The notes beneath the pieces are model-generated. The model made no database searches. It was not told where the DNA came from and saw only the letters and a list, made by a program, of their open reading frames with translations. Positions 4,828 through 40,392 of a stretch of DNA of 64,000 bases are shown here, piece after piece. The first letter of the stretch is position 1. Each line of letters begins with the position of its first letter. The stretch lies in the NCBI RefSeq assembly GCF_058153355.1, contig NZ_CM177019.1. The stretch is one strand, 5' to 3'. Position numbers and translations under genes: made by a program.

Positions 4828-6144
4828 TTAAGCGCGTTGATTGTCTTTCATCAACAAAGCGGTCATTGCGGAAATCAGGCATCCAGCCAGTAAATAAATG
4901 GCGACGCTATGCCAGTTCCCGGCAAAGTAAGTGATAAGTGCAGCGGCAATGAAAGGTGTAAATCCACCGCCAACCACACTGGCAACCTGATATCCGATTC
5001 CAGCACCACTGTAGCGATAACTGGCACCAAACATTTCGGTAAACATCGGTTGTTGCACGCACACCACCATGTCATGCGCAATGTTTGCCAGCATTATGGA
5101 GAAGAAAACTATCCAGAAAATGGATTGTGCTTCAAGCGCCATAAAGAAAGGAAATGCGCTCAACGTTCCGATTAACGCACCTGTGATATAAACTCTGCGG
5201 CGACCAAAACGATCGGCAAGCCAGGCAAAACAGGGAATTGTCAGACAGCTTAGTCCACCTACCAGCAAACCAATATTGAGGAAAAGTTCGCGCGGTAACC
5301 CCATATTCTGGGTTGAATAATTAAGTGCGAAGGCGGTAACGATGTACATCGTCAGCAACTCGCACAGTCGTAGCGCAATAATCTTCAGAAAAGCACCGGG
5401 ATGTCGTAACAGTGCTTCGATAACCGGGATGCGTTTTTGCGCTGCCGCTTGATTATGTTGCTGTTGTTCAAATTCCGCGGACTCCTCCATGCCATTACGC
5501 ACCCACAATGCCCCCAGTACCAGTACGATGCTAAACAGGAAAGGAATGCGCCAGCCCCAGCTTAAAAACTGTTCGTCAGTCGTCATCATACTGATCAATG
5601 AAACCAGTCCGGTCGAAAGCAGTAAACCTACTCCGTAGCCAACTTGTACACCGCTACTGTAAAAGGCTTTTTTATTTTTCGGTGCACTTTCAACGGAAAG
5701 TAACGCCGCGCCTCCCCATTCGCCGCCGACAGCAAATCCCTGAATGGCACGCAGCGTCACCAGTAAAATGGGGGCCCACCACCCAATAGTCGAGAATGAA
5801 GGAAGAATACCAATCAAGGCTGTCGCGATACCCATCATCCAGACGGTCAGCATTAACATGCGCTTACGTCCCAGTCGGTCGCCAAAGTGACCGAAAATGA
5901 CACCGCCGAGCGGACGGAACAGGAATCCGACACCAAAGGTGGCAAATGCGGCGAGCGTTCCCATAGCCGGGCTTACTTGCGGGAAAAACTCGCGATTAAA
6001 CACCAGTGCGGCGGTAATGCCATAGAGTAAAAAATCATACCAGTCGACGACGGCACCAGCGAAACTGCCTAACGCAGCTCGTCGGGCGCGACTTAACGAA
6101 AGCGTCCCTTCATCGGGACGAGTGGAGATGAGCGTGGAGTCCAT
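4828..6144 (-). CDS. shiA: shikimate/dehydroshikimate MFS transporter
   Basis: 438-aa MFS-type ORF starting MDSTLISTRPDEGTLSLSRARR; position beside amn. Confidence 0.85.
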   Translation of the reverse strand: MDSTLISTRPDEGTLSLSRARRAALGSFAGAVVDWYDFLLYGITAALVFNREFFPQVSPAMGTLAAFATFGVGFLFRPLGGVIFGHFGDRLGRKRMLMLTVWMMGIATALIGILPSFSTIGWWAPILLVTLRAIQGFAVGGEWGGAALLSVESAPKNKKAFYSSGVQVGYGVGLLLSTGLVSLISMMTTDEQFLSWGWRIPFLFSIVLVLGALWVRNGMEESAEFEQQQHNQAAAQKRIPVIEALLRHPGAFLKIIALRLCELLTMYIVTAFALNYSTQNMGLPRELFLNIGLLVGGLSCLTIPCFAWLADRFGRRRVYITGALIGTLSAFPFFMALEAQSIFWIVFFSIMLANIAHDMVVCVQQPMFTEMFGASYRYSGAGIGYQVASVVGGGFTPFIAAALITYFAGNWHSVAIYLLAGCLISAMTALLMKDNQRA

Positions 6145-22843: not shown

Positions 22844-24667
22844 GTGTGTCACGAAGGAGTACTTATGGCAACAATGTGAAAATTGCAGCATAAGTTATCC
22901 ATGCTCTGAGGTGGGTGGAGGTGGGCCCTCCGGTCAGGGTTTACAGGAGCACTGACCAAACGACCCGGTGCTGCTTCATTCTAAGGAATGAGGTGGTGAG
23001 CGACTCGGGAAAAGGCAGAGATCTACTGTCACGTGGGGTTCGGGAAGCTGAACGAAAGTAAACTGTCCGATGAAGCATCGAAATCTTAGATGATGTCAAA
23101 ATGGGGCCGTACAGCCGTCCCCTGATAAGCGCAGAAGACACCTGCTTACTGACTGCGCGGCATCCGGTGTGAAGGCAGCAGGATCCCGGGCCAGACCATC
23201 TCAGGGAACGTGAGAACCTGTTTCCGGCACGTATCGGGAAACAGGGGCGGACCCATTCGTAGTAGTGATGAAAGATCTGTAATGGGTCTGGAGCGAAGGG
23301 ATGGGGATCACATTCATTGCAGAAGACACAACCCAAAAGGGGATGACGTAACTGATGCAACGAAAATCATTTGAAATACCAAAAGCACTGGTCTGGGCAT
23401 CATATCTGGATGTGCGTCGCAACAAGGGAGCCCCCGGATGCGACGGGCAGACTTTGAAAATGTTCGACCAGCAACGTGATGGCAATCTATACAAGATCTG
23501 GAACCGGCTATGTTCGGGAACATGGTTTCCGCCACCAGTGCTGGAAAAACGGATCCCGAAGTCGAATGGCAAGGAACGCATTCTGGGGATCCCAACAGTA
23601 TCCGATCGAATTGCTCAGGGAGCGATAAAACTTTTCATGGAAGAAAAGCTTGACCCGATTTTCCATGCTGATTCATATGGTTACCGACCAGGCAAATCAG
23701 CTCATGACGCTCTGAAACAATGTGCCATCCGGTGCTGGCGTTATAGCTGGATACTGGAAGTGGACATCAGTGCGTTTTTCGACCATGTGAGACATGATCT
23801 GGTGCTCAAAGCTCTGGAACACCACGGGATGCCTAAATGGGTCATCCTGTACTGTCGACGCTGGATGGAAGCGCCAATGCAGAGTTGTGAAAATGGAGAA
23901 TTAATAACCCGAACACGAGGCACTCCGCAGGGCGGGGTCATTAGTCCACTACTTGCTAACTTGTTCCTTCACTATGCATTTGATTTGTGGATGGAAAGAG
24001 AATATCGGGGGGTACCGTTTGAGAGGTACGCTGACGATATTGTAGTACATTGTTCACGAATGAGTGATGCAACAAGGCTGAAGAACAGGTTATCGGAGCG
24101 CTTCTCGGAAGTCGGGCTGGTCCTGAATGCAGGGAAAACGAATATCGCCTACATTGACACGTTTAAAAGGAGAAACGTCGCAACGAGTTTCACCTTTCTC
24201 GGATATGACTTCAAAGTGCGTACGCTGAAGAATTTCAAAGGCGAACTGTACCGAAAATGCATGCCGGGTGCGTCAAATGCAGCAATGCGCAAAATAACAG
24301 AAACAATCAAGAAGTGGCGTATACATCGCTCAACAGCTGAGAGTTTGCTGGATTTTGCGAGGCGCTACAATGCGATAGTGAGAGGCTGGATCGAGTACTA
24401 CGGAAAGTTCTGGTCCAGAAATTTCAACTATCGACTGTGGAGTGCAATGCAGTCACGTCTGCTCAAGTGGATGCAGTCTAAATACAGACTTTCGAACCGG
24501 AAGGCTCAGCGAAAGCTGACGCTGGTAAGGAAGGAGTATCCGAAGCTATTTGTTCACTGGTATTTACTACGTGCATCAAATGAGTGATCAAGAGCCGTAT
24601 GACGCGAGAGTGTCACGTACGGTTCCGTGAGCAGCCGGGGAGTGAAATTCTCTCCGGCTGACTCGAC
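22844..24667 (+). mobile_element. group II intron (~1.8 kb) with intron-encoded reverse transcriptase
   Basis: 5' GTGTG start; domain V-like GAGCCGTATGACGCGAGAGTGTCACGTACGGTTC near 3' end; joining the flanks restores the TnpC frame (KNWL-FAGSDSGG). Confidence 0.7.
23355..24587 (+). CDS. group II intron reverse transcriptase/maturase
   Basis: 410 aa with RT motifs including YADD and a C-terminal maturase-like region. Confidence 0.8.
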   Translation: MQRKSFEIPKALVWASYLDVRRNKGAPGCDGQTLKMFDQQRDGNLYKIWNRLCSGTWFPPPVLEKRIPKSNGKERILGIPTVSDRIAQGAIKLFMEEKLDPIFHADSYGYRPGKSAHDALKQCAIRCWRYSWILEVDISAFFDHVRHDLVLKALEHHGMPKWVILYCRRWMEAPMQSCENGELITRTRGTPQGGVISPLLANLFLHYAFDLWMEREYRGVPFERYADDIVVHCSRMSDATRLKNRLSERFSEVGLVLNAGKTNIAYIDTFKRRNVATSFTFLGYDFKVRTLKNFKGELYRKCMPGASNAAMRKITETIKKWRIHRSTAESLLDFARRYNAIVRGWIEYYGKFWSRNFNYRLWSAMQSRLLKWMQSKYRLSNRKAQRKLTLVRKEYPKLFVHWYLLRASNE

Positions 24668-27572: not shown

Positions 27573-27885
27573 ATTTCACCTCATCCGTGTCAGGTTATCG
27601 AAGAGTAGAATTTCAGCAAATTCATGTTACACCGAACGGGTATCATTTCAATGTTTAATAATAATTTCCCCTTATAAAACAACGCTTATAATACATTCGC
27701 AGGTCAGATGATTTATCGGTGTGTTATTTGTTTGAATTTGGTGTTGTGGTTTTCTTTTTTTAACAATCTTCGATCTTCCTTCCACGACTTCCCCTTGCCG
27801 TTTTCAACCGAAAGCGGTATCTTTCACTTGCACCTGCAAAATCAGGTGCCGGGATTGGAACCCCGAAATGTAACCATACTGGCGA

Positions 27886-27910
27886 CACGTGACGCGTCTG
27901 CGTCTTTTTT
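27886..27910 (+). terminator. hairpin plus T-run (GACGCGTCTGCGTC-TTTTTTT)
   Basis: Short GC stem followed by seven T on the plus strand. Confidence 0.35.
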
Positions 27911-28075
27911 TATGTCGCGCGCTTAGCTACACCAAAATTATGGTGGGCTGGGCGGGGGCACCGTAAGGTGCGCCGGTTCCAGTATGGCCGGTAGTTCCAA
28001 CCTCGTTCAGTCCACCACCCATGAGATTGGAACCTCTGGTGGTGGTTTTCAAACCACATACTGGAGGCTGCCTTT

Positions 28076-28543: not shown

Positions 28544-28746
28544 TGCAGTCTGACTGGCATCCTGCCGACATTATCGCCGGGCTGAAAAAACGTGGCACTT
28601 CGCTGTCAGCGCTTTCGCGTCAGGCTGGGCTGGCGTCCTCCACGCTGGCTAATGCGCTTACCCGCCGCTGGCCCAAAGGTGAAAGATTGATTGCCGAAGC
28701 GTTAGATGTTGCGCCTGAGAACATCTGGCCTTCGCGCTATCGCTGA
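28540..28746 (+). CDS. Ner/Nlp-family HTH DNA-binding protein
   Basis: MMQSDWHPADIIAGLKKRGTSLSALSRQAGLASSTLANAL...WPSRY resembles Nlp/Ner; start placed at internal Met of ORF 28486-28746. Confidence 0.6.
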   Translation: MMQSDWHPADIIAGLKKRGTSLSALSRQAGLASSTLANALTRRWPKGERLIAEALDVAPENIWPSRYR

Positions 28747-28892
28747 TGTCCTTCCGGCGCAGCCACGATACGGAAGCTGCGCCGCATTTCGTTTATCTGA
28801 TTTGTCATAATCCTTTGAACCGCAAAAACAGTTTTCTATTATCGGCCTTCTTACCACGAACTAAGCTCCCGCCTGTACAAAATGCTTCATGA

Positions 28893-28920
28893 CCTGAAAG
28901 AAGCGCCTGATGTATCAGGA
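28893..28920 (+). repeat. imperfect direct repeat copy 1 (CCTGAAAGAAGCGCCTG...TATCAGGA) upstream of pemI
   Basis: About 30 bp shared with a second copy at 29862-29889. Confidence 0.45.
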
Positions 28921-29093
28921 TGGTCGCCGTTTTACCGGCAATGCCGCCTTTGAAAACTGCCGGATCTGTCCTTCGATGGATTAAGGCTTTCTTCATACTT
29001 TATTACGCTAAGGAAATCACAATGAATCTGATGAATAATTGTGCATCGCCTGCCGTAGATGTTATATTAAAATATAATATTCGGAGGTGCTCT

Positions 29094-29351
29094 ATGTATA
29101 CAACTCGCCTGAAAAAGGTCGGCGGATCCATCATGCTGGCGGTTCCCCCCGCCGTGCTGAAAACGCTGGAGCTGTCGACGGACAGCGAAGTGGGTATGAC
29201 CATTGATAATGGCTGCCTGATTATTGAACCCCAGAAACGGCCCCGTTATTCGCTTGAGGAGCTGTTGGCGCAGTGCGATCCGCACGCAGAAATGAGCGAA
29301 GAGGATCGGGAATGGATTGATGCGCCTGCGGTGGGCAAGGAGATCCTGTAA
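29094..29351 (+). CDS. pemI: PemI/MazE-family antitoxin
   Basis: MYTTRLKKVGGSIMLAVPPAVLK...YSLEELLAQCDP closely resembles plasmid R100 PemI; start at internal Met of ORF 28920-29351. Confidence 0.8.
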   Translation: MYTTRLKKVGGSIMLAVPPAVLKTLELSTDSEVGMTIDNGCLIIEPQKRPRYSLEELLAQCDPHAEMSEEDREWIDAPAVGKEIL

Positions 29352-29684
29352 ATGGACAGAGGGGAAATCTGGCTGGTTTCACTGGATCCGATTGCAGGTC
29401 ACGAGCAAAGCGGAAAACGTCCGGTGCTTATCGTATCGAAGGCATCGTTTAACAAGCTGACCCGGCTACCCGTTGTTGTTCCCGTTACCAGCGGTGGAAA
29501 CTTCGCCCGTGCAGCCGGTTTTACCGTCTCACTGGACGGTGCGGGAACAAAAACAACGGGCGTTATTCGCTGCGACCAGCCCAGAACCATTGATATGGGA
29601 GCCCGGAGCGGAAAGCGACTGGAACGTATACCCGATGCTGTCGTGAATGAAGTGCTGGCCCGACTGGAGGCCATTCTGAGCTGA
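29352..29684 (+). CDS. pemK: PemK/MazF-family toxin
   Basis: MDRGEIWLVSLDPIAGHEQSGKRPVLIVS...LPVVVPVTSGGNFARAAGF closely resembles PemK. Confidence 0.85.
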   Translation: MDRGEIWLVSLDPIAGHEQSGKRPVLIVSKASFNKLTRLPVVVPVTSGGNFARAAGFTVSLDGAGTKTTGVIRCDQPRTIDMGARSGKRLERIPDAVVNEVLARLEAILS

Positions 29685-29861
29685 TGCTTTTTATGTAAAC
29701 TGAATGATGGCGCTGTCATATACAGCGCCATCATTTTTTATAACGACAAGTGATTAAAAAATCCTTTTGCAGGTAAAAACAGTTTTTCCTTTCTCCGCCA
29801 GCGGTACTGGCATAGTCTCCCCCTTGCCCTATGCTGTCGTTGACAGCGCCACGCTTCACAA

Positions 29862-29889
29862 CCTGAAAGAAGCGCCTGTTATCAGGAGG
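29862..29889 (+). repeat. imperfect direct repeat copy 2, downstream of pemK
   Basis: Matches 28893-28920 with a few mismatches; partial similarity extends ~40 bp further. Confidence 0.45.
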
Positions 29890-30119
29890 TTGAGCCCTTT
29901 ACCGGTGCAGACCTTTGCAAACACCGGGTCGCAGAACATCGCGACGGAGGCCAGAGTTTTAACACGATACGTCCTTTTACTGCGCCAGCCTGCTGGTCTG
30001 AATCTGCCCCGCGCCGGAATTTTCCCGGTCAGCTTATATTTGCTGACACCCTCAGCACCTTTTACCTCACGGGCTGCGGCATGCATTTGCCGCAAGGCAT
30101 TTGCTGACGCGTGCCCGTA

Positions 30120-30250
30120 AAACTGCACCAGACGGTAAATTTTCAGACGCTGCACCAGACCCGTGCGTCACTTTAACCGCGCAGAGCGGGAAAGTGACGC
30201 ACGCAATCCCTTTCGACCTGCACCAGAAAACTCAACTGCGCCAGCTCACG
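30120..30250 (-). repeat. array of CTGCACCAG/CTGCGCCAG motifs upstream of the recombinase gene
   Basis: At least four copies near 30123, 30149, 30220 and 30238, in opposite orientation to the array at 31618-31881. Confidence 0.45.
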
Positions 30251-30535
30251 GCTGGAGTCTGACACCGCCTTTTCAGGCCATTTACCTATAAGGAGAACAT
30301 GAATCGATACCGAGGCGGATCCGGACGATCCGGGGGATAACCCGCGCAAGCGGGCGGCTGCTCAGAGAGCACAACCGAAGCCCCACCACACCTCAACGGC
30401 TGCCGCCCCGGCGCTCAGGTATCGTTCGCAGCCCCGACAAAAAAACAGGGGCTATCGGCCTGTGCGCCGGGGAAAGCTGTATCAGTGTTGGTTTTTTGGG
30501 GGATGAGTTTGCGGCAATCATGAAAAGGGGAATGT

Positions 30536-31423
30536 ATGGGGATACTGGAGCAGGAAATGACGCGACTGGCGCAGCAGGCGGGTGGCAGCTACAAAACTGT
30601 GGATGACCGCATCAGGCTGGCGCAGCGGTTTTGTGAGCGTCTGGTTCTGGCGCAGAACGTACAAATCCGCCGGGTGGAGCAGCTTAAGGCGCGGCATATT
30701 GAAGGCTATGTTCGTGAACGGCTGGCGCAGGGCATCACAAAGCGTTCCCTGCAAAATGAGATGGCGGCGGTGCGCTGCATTCTGAAACAGGCCGGGCGTG
30801 ACAGGCTGGCGCAGAGTGAGCGGCTGAATAACCGCTCGCTGGGATTGTCCGGAGCATCCCGTAACGGGACGAAGCTGGCTATTACACTGGAGCACTATCG
30901 TGATGTGCTGGAGACCGCCCGCGTAAAAGATCCGGGGCTGGCGGCAGCGCTGGAGCTCTCAAGGTTGATGGGATTACGTTCGCAGGAGGCGGTGCAGAGT
31001 GTACAGTCGCTGAAAACGTGGATACAGGCGCTGGAGCGTGGTGAGTCCCGGTTAACCGTGGTGTTCGGCACCAAAGGCGGACGGCCCCGCGAGACGATTA
31101 TTCTTGATGCTGGCGTAGTTAAAAAAGCGCTGGATAATGCGCTGGTGGTGGCTGAGGATCGTCACGGCAGGCTGATAGATAAGCCCGATCTGAGAAGCGC
31201 GATGAAATACTGGCACAGCCAGGCGTCGGGTCTTGGTTTAACTGGCGCATATTCCCCGCACTCGTTGCGCTATGCCTGGGCGCAGGATGCTATTCGTCAT
31301 TATCTGGCGCAGGGATTTTGTGAGAAGGAAGCGCTGGCGATGACGGCGATGGATTTGGGTCACGGCGACGGGCGCGGGCGGTATGTGGCGCAGGTTTACG
31401 GGCGAAAGGGGGATGCTGATTGA
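30536..31423 (+). CDS. small tyrosine recombinase/integrase-family protein
   Basis: 295 aa; C-terminal HSLRYAWAQ box and candidate nucleophile in GRGRYVAQVYG; LAQ-rich N-terminal domain. Confidence 0.5.
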   Translation: MGILEQEMTRLAQQAGGSYKTVDDRIRLAQRFCERLVLAQNVQIRRVEQLKARHIEGYVRERLAQGITKRSLQNEMAAVRCILKQAGRDRLAQSERLNNRSLGLSGASRNGTKLAITLEHYRDVLETARVKDPGLAAALELSRLMGLRSQEAVQSVQSLKTWIQALERGESRLTVVFGTKGGRPRETIILDAGVVKKALDNALVVAEDRHGRLIDKPDLRSAMKYWHSQASGLGLTGAYSPHSLRYAWAQDAIRHYLAQGFCEKEALAMTAMDLGHGDGRGRYVAQVYGRKGDAD

Positions 31424-31446
31424 TAGCTTCAGACTTGCAATATGAT

Positions 31447-32005
31447 GTTATTCATCGTTTTCCGTACAAAATTATTTGCCTCAAATAATTTTGGGTGATT
31501 TCCTATTAATCCCGGGTTATTCATCGTTATTCACCGAAAAAATTTCTACGTAGAAATTTTTTGTTCGATTTCCTCTCAATAAAAATGCTTCTGAACGGTA
31601 TGGCCTATTAACAGGCCTCTGGTGCAGTATTACGGTATTTTACTGATGATTGCGCCAGCAAAAGGAAAAGGCCAAATAATGGTAAAGGGCGACTAAGGGT
31701 AACAGCGCCAGACCGGAAAGGGCCAAAAGGCTAAAAGGCCTTAACACTGGCGCAGTTTGATGTTTATCCAATAATATCTGGCGCAGTCCTGACATAGACA
31801 GGTGACAGCGGACTGGTGCAGTAAATGGTGACATTGAACTGGTGCGGATACGATGTATTGGGAAATCAGTTTCTGGTGCAGATTATCTGGCAGCTATCGT
31901 CTGGAGATTATTCACTGTGAATAATTTTCGTTATTTGCCTATTGATTCATAATATATTGATAGGTTTTCGTACAAAATTATTCTACGTCGAATAATTTTG
32001 TACGC
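31447..32005. promoter_or_regulatory. cluster of perfect palindromes (candidate operators or recombination sites)
   Basis: CAAAATTATTTG-CCT-CAAATAATTTTG (~31466-31492); 24-bp AAAAATTTCTACGTAGAAATTTTT (~31539-31565); ATTATTCAC-T-GTGAATAAT (~31907-31925); GTACAAAATTATTC...GAATAATTTTGTAC (~31969-32002). Confidence 0.5.
31618..31881 (+). repeat. array of CTGGYGCAG direct repeats at ~26-35 bp spacing
   Basis: Copies near 31618, 31747, 31778, 31813, 31839 and 31873. Confidence 0.5.
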
Positions 32006-32116: not shown

Positions 32117-33379
32117 TCAGGCCGCCTTATGCCGTCGCGCATAAATATACGGCGCAACGTATCCCTCGCGGCTCACGTCCAGATAATCCGACCACCACTG
32201 CATCATGGCTGTACGGGCGTCAAGATGTTCAGCCCGGTGGATATACGCCGCCCGAACGCTGTTGCGCTCCTGATGACTTATCTGCCGCTCCACCGCATCC
32301 CGTGACCAGAGCTCAGATTCCACTAATGCGCTACAGGCCATTGCCCGGAAGCCATGCCCGCAAACGTCAGTTTTAGTATCGTAACCTATCAGACGCAGCG
32401 CCCGGTTGATGGTGTTTTCACTCATCGGTTTATACGGGTTATGGTCGCCGGGGAACACCAGTTCCAGATGGCCGGAAATTTCGTGTATCTGCTTCAGAAT
32501 GGCAATAGCCTGTCGGGAAAGTGGCACAATATGTGGGGTGCGCATTTTCGCGCCGCGACCAGAGAAACGGACTTTCTCAATCGCTTCCCTTGTGGCGGGG
32601 ATGATCCAGATTTTGTTTCTGAAATCTATCTCACCCCAGCGGGCAAAGCGCAGCTCGCTGGAACGGATAAACAGGTGGAGAGTCAACACCACCGCCAGCC
32701 TCGTAAGCTGTCGTCCCTGCCGATAGTCGCCAATGCGCTCAAACAATTCGGGCAACCGCTCCAGCGGCAGAGCGGGATAGTGATTCTTAACCGGCGGCGC
32801 GGTGACGCCTTCCAGATGCTGCGCCGGGTTGTTTTCGGTCAGTCCCTGCTGAACGGCGTAACGCATGATGTTGCAGAGTTGCTGCCGGGTACGGGACGCG
32901 ACTTCCAGAAAACCTTTATCCTCAATAACCCGCAGTAACGCAGTGAAATGCTGCGTTTTCAGCGTGGTAACGGGCAGATGGCCAATAGCCGGAAATATAT
33001 GGTTATTCATGCTGGCGAGAATGCGCTCTGCATAATCAGGCGACCACTTTTTGTTGGTTTTGTGCCATGCAAGCGCTACAGCTTTAAAACACTTTTCCGG
33101 TGAAGTGGCGGCTTTTTCATCCATGCGTTGTTGGGCGGGGTTGATATTCTGCGCCAGTAGCTTGCGGATAGCATCGCGCTGTTGCCGGGCTTCAGCGAGA
33201 GAAATCAGCGGATATGCGCCCAGACTGACGCGGGACTCTTTACCACCGAAGCGATACTTGAGATACCAGATACGTGAACCGCCGGGATTGACCAGCAAAT
33301 ACAGACCGTGTGAATCAGACAGTTTGACGGGTTTGGAAGAGGGTTTTAAGTTACGGATTTTTGAATCGTTTAAAGACAT
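32117..33379 (-). CDS. int: P4-type tyrosine integrase
   Basis: ORF 32117-33481; start placed at MSLNDSKIRNLKPSSKPVKLSDSHGLYLLVNPGGSRIWYLKY, a P4-integrase-like N-terminus; adjacent to tRNA-Asn. Confidence 0.8.
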   Translation of the reverse strand: MSLNDSKIRNLKPSSKPVKLSDSHGLYLLVNPGGSRIWYLKYRFGGKESRVSLGAYPLISLAEARQQRDAIRKLLAQNINPAQQRMDEKAATSPEKCFKAVALAWHKTNKKWSPDYAERILASMNNHIFPAIGHLPVTTLKTQHFTALLRVIEDKGFLEVASRTRQQLCNIMRYAVQQGLTENNPAQHLEGVTAPPVKNHYPALPLERLPELFERIGDYRQGRQLTRLAVVLTLHLFIRSSELRFARWGEIDFRNKIWIIPATREAIEKVRFSGRGAKMRTPHIVPLSRQAIAILKQIHEISGHLELVFPGDHNPYKPMSENTINRALRLIGYDTKTDVCGHGFRAMACSALVESELWSRDAVERQISHQERNSVRAAYIHRAEHLDARTAMMQWWSDYLDVSREGYVAPYIYARRHKAA

Positions 33380-33540
33380 TTGGGGGTCACTCCAGAATCG
33401 AACCAACCTGACCCCAAATCTGACCACCAAATTAACCGGATGCGGAGGGAAAACTGAATACGCATCTGGAAAGATTTTCACGCTAACTTATTGAATCAAT
33501 ATCAAATAAAGACTAATAAGGTAGCGTAAGAATCGAAATT

Positions 33541-34607: not shown

Positions 34608-34697
34608 GGAGAGATGCCGGAGCGGCTGAACGGACCGGTCTCGAAAACCGGAGTGGGGGCAACTCCACCGGGGGTTCAAATCCCCCTCTCTCCGCCA
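34608..34697 (+). tRNA. serU: tRNA-Ser (CGA)
   Basis: 90-nt GGAGAGATGCCGGAGCGGCTGAACGGACCGGTCTCGAAAACCGG...TCTCCGCCA with long variable arm and CGA anticodon. Confidence 0.85.
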
Positions 34698-39545: not shown

Positions 39546-40392
39546 GATGGCAGCCTCGATAGTCAGTTTAAATAACTCACCACCAGAGGTAGCAATCTCA
39601 TGGGTGGTGAGACGCACAGGGTTGCTACAACCGGTGACTACCGAAACCGGCCAGCCTTGCGGCTGCCCTGCACGCCCCACCATAATCTGAATGTGGCTGT
39701 GCTTGACGCATAAAAAAACCGCCTGAGCGCGGTTATGCGCAGTAGTCATCGTCGGGGTAGCAATCCCGGCACCCGTTTTATGAGGTGCAGGTGCACTATA
39801 ATTCCACCCGTTCTGGTTTTCAATAGCTACATTCAACATTTTCTCTTTCCTTTCATCACCGAAGTGAACTTTGTTGATGCGGTGCCTGGTGCCTCCAGGT
39901 GACGTTAACCAGTTAACAATTAACGCCGGAATAAGGGATTTTCCTTACTGTTTTAACTGTTCCGCGTGCGCTGAGCCGCATTCACCGCATCACAAAATTC
40001 ACTTTAAAAAGGGCGGACATCAGCCAGCAATTAAACCGATGCCGCCAAAGGTAATCAACATGGGTTGTTGCAGCGGGGTTGTCGCTCAGGCGTATGGTCA
40101 ACCTGACAACCCGGTGGACATTTGCGAGGAACGGAGAACCCCCGCCATACTTACCGCCGCGCCATTTCGCGGATTGCCACAACCGGAAGCGCACGGTCGA
40201 AGAAAATTTAACGACAGGCTATCTATGAACCAGCAACCTCGCCGTGCGCTTTCGCGTTATGCTCTGACTTTTCAGGGAAATATCCTTTCAGTAAACTGTC
40301 AGTGCCGGATACTCACCCGTGTCCGGCGCACCTACTCCACCTTACCCGTGGAGAACTCCTTAATTACCAACCTTAGCTTCGTTGGTTAGCTA

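Follow-up and report, generated by a model that had tools for sequence, protein, structure and literature searches.

STAXI and EFASI are conserved enterobacterial RNA motifs with no known function, the first described in 2010 and the second known in the literature from its Rfam entry. STAXI consists of a pseudoknot unit repeated two or three times; it occurs in Enterobacteriales, near integrases and sometimes near C4 antisense RNAs (PMC2864571). Its UUCG loops argue for RNA over single-stranded DNA, and a single-stranded-DNA role was raised by its own authors (PMC2864571). The Rfam entry for EFASI (RF02957, quoted in PMC12370729) places it several hundred bp downstream of STAXI, with integrase genes following it, and canonical STAXI and EFASI RNAs have been detected by reverse transcription–polymerase chain reaction in E. 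coli vesicles (PMC12370729). Here, we analyze a stretch of 64,000 nt of contig NZ_CM177019.1 (assembly GCF_058153355.1), called the window throughout, in which a PemI/PemK toxin–antitoxin pair stands between two direct copies of a repeat element, R, that turns out to be related to STAXI. Coordinates are window positions on one strand, read 5' to 3'; the copy of R before pemI is R-left, and the copy after pemK is R-right.

A second described system bears on the same locus through the gene that follows EFASI in the window, which is annotated as encoding an integrase domain and matches PF12835. This family is the signature for MpsA, the atypical tyrosine-recombinase-fold relaxase of Salmonella genomic island 1 (SGI1) (PMC10484663). 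In SGI1, a primary RNA of 650-700 nt starts upstream of the origin of transfer (oriT), and a GC-rich stem-loop 66 nt after the start limits the amount of full-length RNA (PMC9299015). The primary RNA stops shortly before mpsA; its 3' portion is sgm-sRNA, a small RNA (sRNA) required for mobilization (PMC9299015). According to a 2026 preprint, MOB_M relaxases, the class with this signature, are abundant, are the most common kind in chromosomes and are often annotated as integrases; the same preprint infers oriTs from conserved intergenic DNA upstream of their genes.

A preliminary description of the window saw in the repeats, given as about 30 bp long and imperfect, a hint that a plasmid-type PemI/PemK pair had been acquired in the manner of a cassette. 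We conclude with high confidence that the repeats are selected, structured elements of the island backbone and not insertion scars. The evidence comes from the boundaries of the inserted unit, the distribution of R among related loci and the covariation of its stems.

The Repeats and the Boundaries of the pemIK Unit

Both repeats are present around pemI and pemK, 969 bp apart as against the roughly 970 bp first stated; they are imperfect, as claimed, but a good deal longer than 30 bp. The sequence CCTGAAAGAAGCGCCTG occurs at 28893-28909 and 29862-29878, the only two matches in the 64 kb even when three mismatches are allowed (0.08 expected), and is followed downstream in both copies by TATCAGGA (28913-28920 and 29880-29887). 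R-left and R-right share an exact 18-mer core and three collinear blocks at a spacing of 951-969 bp (28809-28835/29760-29786, 28884-28909/29853-29878 and 28913-28938/29880-29905); a gapped alignment joining the three blocks covers about 130-150 nt at 72% identity, with a 2-nt indel inside the conserved core distinguishing the two copies. A covariance model built from relatives (R1) matches exactly two places in the window, namely R-left (118.2 bits, E about 1e-33, 28852-29004) and R-right (135.9 bits, E about 5e-39, 29822-29973).

The edges of the insert do not coincide with these repeats. We mapped them by alignment and blastn against alleles that have no toxin–antitoxin pair at this place (EA2, S. 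diarizonae and Citrobacter; "empty" alleles hereafter). Homology with the empty alleles, and with alleles that carry a relE/HTH2 module, ends at 28742, in the last codons of an upstream helix-turn-helix (HTH) gene; with the empty alleles it resumes at 29756, at the 5' edge of R-right. The pemIK unit delimited in this way takes the place of about 96 bp of the empty allele, made up of five C-terminal HTH codons and a hairpin with a 14-bp stem. R-left lies wholly inside the insert and R-right wholly outside it, which excludes a target duplication and hybrid attachment (att) sites. The two copies share only 72% identity, and across genera each one keeps the downstream module that belongs to it; they are therefore paralogues of long standing and not the products of a fresh duplication. 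The idea that the repeats mark the ends of a cassette is not supported by the position of the insert relative to the repeats, by the relE/HTH module, which has no downstream copy of R, or by the selection for fold that acts on both copies.

What does hold in the cassette idea is that the slot is variable and that R-left and pemIK move as a block. The pemIK unit is 85-100% conserved as a block in loci whose flanks are 70-80% identical. The relE/HTH2 module uses the other side of the native R, where it replaces the equivalent of 29955-30051, and it brings no second R.

Distribution and Locus Architectures

We sorted 47 related Enterobacterales loci by architecture, using tblastn, a hidden Markov model of the repeat and detection of EFASI, with Rfam run on a subset. 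The commonest arrangement, in 17 loci, is HTH gene, R, EFASI and relaxase-like gene with no toxin–antitoxin pair; R-pemIK-R is found in 11, and HTH gene, R, relE, HTH2, EFASI and relaxase-like gene, with a single R, in six. Several further loci have R-pemIK where the sequence is cut off or the module truncated. Overall, pemIK is present in about 18 of the 47 and R without pemIK in 23, and the R1 covariance model finds no locus with more than two copies of R. In the empty alleles L003, L043 and L049, the single R shows 90-95% identity to R-right. R-left forms a separate lineage that has no first hairpin (H1) and differs in its 3' half; apart from L039, all its members with downstream sequence available have pemIK next, and the block of R-left and pemIK spans many genera.

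Among 5426 complete E. coli genomes, the 2-kb region occurs in 43, always on the chromosome, and the full R-pemIK-R arrangement in 29, including LF82 and NRG 857C at 96.7% identity. Either copy of R taken alone is found in 39-42 of these genomes, in one or two places each and always in this module. In a sample of one genome per species (100,044 species), the exact core pattern of R picks out 50 stretches, of which 43 are in Enterobacterales and in the same gene context, while the other seven are isolated chance matches in unrelated phyla. From these architectures and counts it follows that R is no REP-like repeat and is not tied to pemIK, but belongs to the fixed make-up of an island family. 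The preliminary description had named as fatal to its view the finding of such repeats, as ordinary intergenic elements, widely without pemIK; by that standard, the 23 of 47 loci in which R occurs without pemIK refute it, although R is not REP-like. Its proposed search for repeat-pemIK-repeat units elsewhere finds them in other Enterobacterales, and on pESI plasmids a fragment of the island (see below).

Some loci have decayed. In L022, L023 and L035 (Enterobacter cancerogenus, [Erwinia] mediterraneensis and Pantoea sp.), R-left and pemIK are followed by a terminator and then directly by tRNA-Asn. On sequence grounds these are island remnants that have lost the integrase, the relaxase-like gene, EFASI and the native R and have kept the toxin–antitoxin pair. 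L050 (Leminorella grimontii, 811-2303) has two toxin–antitoxin modules in tandem: first relE, decayed and interrupted by an internal stop, with HTH2, and then R-left and pemIK; no R lies upstream of the first module. A phage or satellite origin was considered and set aside, as 50,697 phage records yielded one marginal match to the middle of the region and one viral contig had the core pattern.

A Conserved, Strand-Specific Fold

R folds around a pseudoknot in which an upstream GCTTC pairs with a GAAGC in the internal loop of the second hairpin; this pairing is possible in 100% of copies. Across 54 aligned distinct copies, the core GCTTCA..CCTG.AAGAAGC is invariant, within an invariant stretch of about 40 nt, and the surrounding stems vary in sequence and keep their pairing. 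In R-right, H1 (TGCTGTC-GTT-GACAGCG, 29832-29848) precedes the pseudoknot strands (29853-29857 and 29869-29873), which are accompanied by an outer stem CAACC/GGTTG, an inner hairpin CCTG-TTAT-CAGG and two further hairpins, CCGG-TGCAG...TTGCA-CCGG and GTCGC...GCGAC. In R-left, the pseudoknot strands lie at 28884-28888 and 28900-28904, the outer stem is TGACC/GGTCG, the inner hairpin is CCTGAT-GT-ATCAGG (28906-28919), and the downstream hairpins are CCGGCA/TGCCGG and ATCTGTC/GATGGAT.

The stems outside the core carry the evidence for selection. H1 occurs as GCTGTC-GTT-GACAGC, GCTGC-TCCG-GCAGC, GTTGTC-TTCG-GACAAC, CTGCC-TGCG-GGCAG and CCGTC-CGCG-GACGG, keeping its stem through these sequence changes and having loops that are mostly YNCG (TTCG, TCCG, TGCG, CGCG). 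The outer stem is found as CAACC/GGTTG, TGACC/GGTCG, CGACC/GGTCG, TGACC/GGTTG and TGGCC/GGTCA, and the sixth pair of the inner stem (CCTGAN/N'TCAGG) takes all four Watson–Crick forms. The last downstream hairpin also covaries, the pemIK-linked lineage included: ATCTGTC/GATGGAT (with two wobbles), ATCTGTC/GACAGAT and ATCCATC/GATGGAT. When 59 distinct copies are realigned to the covariance model, 82% of cells pair, compared with 30-51% when the partners are slid, and 126 double-sided changes are observed against 25-47 in the slid controls; this alignment was fitted to the model, so its pairing figures lean toward structure. The stem variants given in this paragraph were taken from unaligned sequences, not from the fitted alignment.

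G.U pairs are frequent in R when it is read on the + strand and would be A.C mismatches on the other, and therefore the + strand is the folding strand. It is also the sense strand of all genes at the locus.

Several further candidates at R were tried. A long-range helix closing the element (5' GCCCU with 3' GGAGGC) is not supported, as it pairs in only 60% of cells and has no excess of double changes. Two coding readings were rejected. For a small + strand peptide, MLHDLKEAP..., about 40% of copies offer no start codon, and indels in the loops disrupt its frame. Minus-strand open reading frames (ORFs) over R (28805-28996 and 29856-30155) have no common frame, owing to the 2-nt core indel between copies. 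RefSeq lists minus-strand hypothetical proteins over both copies in E. coli LF82 (L001:4266-4457 and 5192-5614; LF82_RS25295 and LF82_RS10405); these are probably not genes, because the fold is conserved and indels between copies shift the frame.

Copies of R can also be typed by their left arm (H1 present or absent) and their right arm, and all four combinations occur. This suggests that crossovers within the invariant core have shuffled the halves of R, which would lend some support to modular exchange through ordinary homologous recombination.

A Divergent Relative of STAXI

At Rfam gathering thresholds, nothing is found at R in the window, and STAXI has no hit in 15 related loci. With E-value thresholds, STAXI (RF01728) is the only Rfam family that matches R on the + strand: R-right scores 25.5 bits (E 7e-4 to 5e-3, 29832-29902), and R-left gives a weak match of 15.1 bits (28881-28926). 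In independent lineages, the full-length STAXI model reaches 35.1, 35.0, 26.9 and 23.7 bits, and in L049 and L012 the alignment takes in the whole of R at 35 bits. The cmscan alignment sets the first hairpin, the pseudoknot strands and the second hairpin of R in one-to-one correspondence with those of STAXI. R has the make-up of a STAXI unit: a hairpin with a UNCG-type loop comes first, and the internal loop of the hairpin after it pairs with the preceding strand as a pseudoknot. The STAXI context is present too, with C4, EFASI and a PF12835 gene around R in the window (Table 1) and the same layout in related loci. Because the Rfam score threshold and the tandem units of STAXI are both lacking, however, we file R as a variant: by its sequence and predicted fold, it is a divergent, single-unit relative of STAXI and not a member of the family.

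The pemIK Unit and Its Island

The island measures 32 kb and is flanked by two tRNA-Asn genes (1688, +; 33541, -); the locus occupies one of its ends. On the + strand, the order is isrK, C4, a 155-codon ORF, the HTH gene, R-left, pemIK, R-right, EFASI and the 295-aa "integrase domain" gene (Table 1).

Table 1. Positions of the features at the locus, with the basis of each assignment.
Feature	Position	Strand	Basis and remarks
isrK	27830-27910	+	Rfam
C4 antisense RNA	27936-28022	+	Rfam
Ner/SfsB-like HTH gene, 68 aa	28540-28746	+	NCBIfam SfsB model, E 4e-30; final backbone gene ahead of the variable stretch
pemIK unit, 1013 bp (hairpin, promoter-like site, R-left, pemI, pemK, terminator-like hairpin)	28743-29755	+	Junctions against empty alleles
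Hairpin, 8-bp GC-rich stem GGCGCAGC/GCTGCGCC and T-rich tract	28757-28783	+	Sequence reading; terminator-like for the upstream operon
R-left, STAXI-like, without H1	28809-28985	+	Covariance model, pairwise alignment
pemI, antitoxin gene, 85 aa	29094-29351	+	MazE/ChpS-type models
pemK, toxin gene, 110 aa, Kid/PemK endoribonuclease family	29352-29684	+	Kid 1m1f, 185.6 bits over residues 1-109; ChpB-family model, E 9e-34
Perfect 14-bp inverted repeat, then T run; terminator-like, end of pemIK unit	29703-29735	.	Inverted-repeat detection, sequence reading
R-right, native STAXI-like element of the backbone	29760-29954	+	R1 135.9 bits; STAXI 25.5 bits
Conserved stretch from R-right to EFASI, with five CTGCRCCAG copies and long hairpin 30162-30203	29980-30244	+	Inverted repeat, motif counts
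EFASI RNA	30299-30428	+	RF02957, 119.2 bits (gathering score 51.2)
"Integrase domain" gene, 295 aa; MpsA-type (MOB_M) relaxase-like tyrosine-recombinase-fold protein	30536-31423	+	PF12835, E 3e-60 over the full model; PF12834, E 8e-36
P4-type integrase gene	32117-33481	-	Adjoins the second tRNA-Asn

By sequence the pair is of the PemIK/Kis-Kid kind: PemK is homologous over its whole length to the Kid toxin of plasmid R1, and an antitoxin of the AbrB/MazE fold, PemI, is encoded immediately upstream, its stop codon abutting the pemK start (TAA ATG at 29349-29354). Directly 5' of pemI we read a palindrome, TTATATT-AA-AATATAA, together with a TATAAT box, and these make an autoregulated promoter for pemIK itself probable. 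A further in-frame ATG is found 24 codons 5' of the annotated pemI start (29023-29093), with a plausible ribosome-binding site, TAAGGAAATCACAATG, and is conserved among pemIK units; it could yield an N-terminally extended PemI, or it may be incidental.

At the upstream junction, the final codons of the HTH gene and its stop codon are already part of the pemIK unit. The terminator-like hairpin that follows moves with the unit, being found also before R-pemIK in Leminorella L050 and on pESI. In the empty and relE alleles (L003:4922-5000, with equivalents in L002, L005, L006, L043 and L049), the HTH gene is longer, at 73 aa, and on its 3' side stands the hairpin with a 14-bp stem, CTCCCGATCTTCTG...CAGAAGATCGGGAG, which has no T run; the pemIK unit swaps in a different hairpin.

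Downstream of R-right, EFASI is in the same position in 13 of 15 related loci scanned, and the remaining two are without the relaxase-like gene. The 295-aa protein combines a tyrosine-recombinase fold with PF12835, the MOB_M signature. A protein search with it returned only close relatives at 85-94% identity, and no SGI1 MpsA was among these matches. Between R-right and EFASI, the long hairpin at 30162-30203 is nearly invariant, with 13-bp perfect arms and a nested inner hairpin that covaries between lineages (CCGC/GCGG versus TCGC/GCGA). It is retained in empty, pemIK and relE alleles and on pESI, and we infer that it is the best candidate at the locus for an oriT, or else for an RNA processing site.

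The same region is rich in the motif CTGCRCCAG, which occurs 20 times in the window against 1.06 expected, 16 of the occurrences being within 29980-31881. Besides the five + strand copies between R-right and EFASI, the relaxase-like gene contains six on the - strand, encoding there a repeated RLAQ peptide, and five more, likewise on the - strand, occupy a 690-bp noncoding stretch 3' of that gene. This convergent layout recurs in the diverged loci L005-L008, L016, L040 and L042, and the array looks like a set of protein-binding sites; like the long hairpin, the arrays count as candidates for the oriT.

Two other observations concern the surroundings. A second isrK and C4 pair is found at 39600-39788 (-), in an apparent second integrated element by tRNA-Ser (34608-34697) that has neither R nor EFASI. 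Group II intron signatures lie in the tRNA-Asn island at 22917-24667 (D1-D4 at 22917-23033, 3' domain at 24590-24667), around a 410-codon ORF.

Plasmid Copies

The region matches 145 plasmids, 142 of them from Salmonella; among the matches listed, these measure 168-324 kb and are taken to be of the pESI type, and their copies cover window positions 28723-30312 at about 83%. In pN55391 (L004), a pESI-type plasmid of Salmonella Infantis, the copy starts with 20 nt from the 3' end of the HTH gene, and its other edge falls 13 nt inside EFASI, at what reads in translation as a transposase-like ORF (...GYLGSQDTFYVGNLKGVGRIYQQMFVDTYSKVAHCKLY...; L004:6545-7200); PLSDB lists no gene at L004:6545-7200. 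Because HTH sequence has been kept at one edge, and the other edge breaks inside EFASI at this ORF, the plasmid holds a piece of the island and not the reverse. The sequences do not support a recent gain of a plasmid cassette by the island.

A Model for the Locus

With moderate confidence, we explain the locus as a whole by paralogous STAXI-like RNA elements, each R being a promoter-proximal leader, and by the juxtaposition of two R-headed modules. R-right is the native backbone copy, heading a stretch of about 670 nt that ends in EFASI, just before the MpsA-type relaxase-like gene. R-left represents a second, older lineage that has lost H1, has a good sigma-70-like promoter and has been inherited with pemIK. 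The pemIK unit was placed between the HTH gene and the native R, leaving two R-headed modules side by side; the locus looks like a bracketed cassette because one such module was put in front of another.

Given its UNCG-type loops, R is most likely an RNA. Terminator-like hairpins precede both copies, and R-left has a sigma-70-like site, TTGAAC-16-TATTAT, at 28815-28842. By analogy with the SGI1 RNA, R would set how much of the transcript continues, or how it is processed, and EFASI would be the stable 3' product of a transcript of about 670 nt starting at R-right; R-left would have the same or a residual leader role for the pemIK unit. Toxin–antitoxin pairs have an established stabilizing role on integrative elements. 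For that reason we expect that pemIK and relE/HTH2 most likely stabilize the island, and such a role would fit the survival of the pair in decayed islands.

Several points weigh against this explanation. Every copy of R scored stays under the STAXI gathering score of 40.5 bits, and R has one clear pseudoknot unit and two different hairpins, as against the two or three tandem units that define STAXI. The pseudoknot strands are almost invariant, leaving no covariation for the pseudoknot itself. Thermodynamic stability taken alone is unremarkable (folding z of -1.4 and -2.2 for the + strand, and between -1.1 and -1.5 for the minus strand), and it is covariation that argues for structure. The sigma-70 match of R-right is poor, so this copy may be read through from upstream or need an activator, and the transcript starts and ends at the locus are predictions. 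The apparent promoter/operator of pemIK itself leaves the added role of R-left uncertain. A strand-specific fold would also be expected if R acted as single-stranded DNA in an oriT. The likeness to the SGI1 RNA, finally, is an analogy of layout and length.

Alternative Explanations

The point about single-stranded DNA leads to the alternative that retains most weight, although we judge it improbable: R would be a single-stranded-DNA oriT element for the MpsA-type relaxase, and with two copies in direct orientation, transfer could start at one and stop at the other, so that pemIK would be moved or deleted. R does lie upstream of a MOB_M-type relaxase-like gene, where the 2026 preprint infers oriTs, and in SGI1 the primary transcript includes the oriT, a few hundred bp before mpsA (PMC6414798, PMC9299015). 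The strand-specific fold and the suggestion made by the STAXI authors (PMC2864571) also speak for it. However, the loops of R are mostly of the UNCG type, which stabilizes RNA and not DNA (argument in PMC2864571), R-left is kept with pemIK where the relaxase gene is absent, and the hairpin at 30162-30203, with its five CTGCRCCAG repeats and its presence in every allele type, is a better candidate.

It is unlikely that R is an independent, trans-acting sRNA gene, as Rfam suggests for EFASI, with each copy making its own sRNA. The promoter-like site of R-left and the terminator-like hairpin before it would suit such a gene, as would the short U tract (TTTTAC or TTTAC) that follows the second hairpin in most copies and the detection of STAXI as an RNA species (PMC12370729). 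Yet the end of R has no clear terminator and R-right no recognizable promoter; there is no known target, and complementarity to the neighboring C4, isrK and EFASI RNAs does not exceed 7 nt. With complementarities of only that length, R as a target of these three RNAs was rejected as well.

That the repeats are the ends of a mobile cassette, whether as an insertion duplication or as att- or attC-like sites for a site-specific recombinase, possibly the neighboring tyrosine-recombinase-fold protein, we consider quite unlikely. The attractions of this view are a variable slot that holds two different toxin–antitoxin modules in different strains, the tandem of relE/HTH, R and pemIK in Leminorella L050, the tyrosine-recombinase-fold gene next door, the invariance of the R core over some 40 nt and the four arm-type combinations, which suggest crossovers inside R. 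Against these stand the insert boundaries (28743 and 29755), which fall outside both repeats (28809-28985 and 29760-29954), and the divergence of two copies that are each kept with their own downstream module across genera. The relE/HTH cargo follows a single R with no copy behind it and is not bounded by the same repeats, no locus has more than two copies, and the UNCG-type loops again point to RNA. On modularity the cassette idea is right in part; on what the repeats are, it is wrong.

Dispersed repeats of the repetitive extragenic palindromic (REP) or bacterial interspersed mosaic element (BIME) kind, chance similarity or parts of minus-strand ORFs are an extremely improbable explanation. 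The annotated LF82 proteins and the minus-strand frames already described speak for it, but the distribution of R and the frames contradict it: no genome has more than two copies, all of them in this module (39-42 of 5426 E. coli genomes), 43 of 50 pattern matches across the species sample are in Enterobacterales and in one context, the core indel makes the minus-strand frames differ, and the + strand peptide has no start codon in about 40% of copies.

Comparison with Described Systems

The reading of R as a STAXI-like leader in two juxtaposed modules can be set against five described systems:

(i) STAXI. R shares with STAXI its occurrence in Enterobacterales, the UNCG-type-loop hairpin followed by a pseudoknotted second hairpin, an integrase gene and C4 nearby, and EFASI a few hundred bp downstream. 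It differs in its scores of 15-35 bits, in having a single unit, in the absence of the first hairpin from R-left and in the placing of two units 969 nt apart with a toxin–antitoxin operon between them.

(ii) The EFASI-STAXI-integrase arrangement (RF02957). The order is the same here, with a STAXI-like element, several hundred bp, EFASI and an integrase-annotated gene. The published description names no function and no toxin–antitoxin pair, whereas here the "integrase" is identified as a PF12835/PF12834 protein of the MpsA type.

(iii) The SGI1 mobilization module (P5, an RNA with oriT, sgm-sRNA, mpsA; PMC6414798, PMC9299015). The relaxase-like protein has the same Pfam signature, a structured element comes just after the presumed start, the distance from R-right to the end of EFASI is about 670 nt, and a structured RNA stands directly 5' of the gene. 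EFASI occupies the position of sgm-sRNA, between the candidate oriT and the relaxase-like gene, a likeness in layout. SGI1 also has a toxin–antitoxin pair for its stability. Unlike SGI1, which has a separate MpsB, the protein here has an N-terminal SAM-like domain fused to it, and the island is at tRNA-Asn, whereas SGI1 integrates at trmE.

(iv) pem/parD (PemI-PemK and Kis-Kid of R100 and R1). The toxin is a close homologue of Kid over its full length (185.6 bits), the antitoxin gene lies immediately upstream, and a palindrome covers the -10 box. The differences are that the pair here is chromosomal, in a tRNA-Asn island, with a STAXI-like element before it, and that the copies on Salmonella pESI are fragments of the island.

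(v) Integron attC sites. R resembles these in being structured and strand-specific, in keeping its fold more than its sequence, in adjoining a gene of the tyrosine-recombinase fold and in its cargo, toxin–antitoxin pairs being common there. It differs in lying 5' of the genes, in not forming a single long imperfect hairpin and in the insert boundaries outside R; there are at most two copies, none downstream of the relE module, and the UNCG loops point to RNA.

Concluding Remarks

The STAXI motif and the STAXI-EFASI-integrase arrangement were already known, and R is a divergent variant within that arrangement. Three things are new: (i) the "integrase" of the arrangement is, by its domain signature, a relaxase-like protein of the MpsA type; (ii) the layout parallels the RNA-dependent mobilization module of SGI1, as far as an analogy of organization goes; and (iii) toxin–antitoxin modules have been taken up on both sides of the STAXI-like element, and one of these modules has an R of its own. 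The pemIK pair itself is more ordinary: a probable stabilizing module in a variable stretch of the island, kept in decayed islands and copied as an island fragment onto the pESI megaplasmid of Salmonella Infantis.

The fixed order of STAXI-like element, EFASI and MpsA-signature gene, seen at this locus and in its 47 relatives, makes the function of STAXI and EFASI experimentally approachable. SGI1 is the only studied example of the MpsA type, and it needs a locally encoded RNA for its transfer. By analogy, we offer a tentative possibility: a single primary RNA of about 670 nt, belonging to the mobilization module of MOB_M islands, may have R as its structured 5' part and EFASI as its 3' part, and so correspond to the P5 transcript of SGI1 with its sgm-sRNA; toxin–antitoxin modules would have been drawn repeatedly into or beside this transcript, with the R core as the crossover point that shuffles them between islands. 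If R and EFASI do form a single RNA, two Rfam motifs of no known function would gain one.

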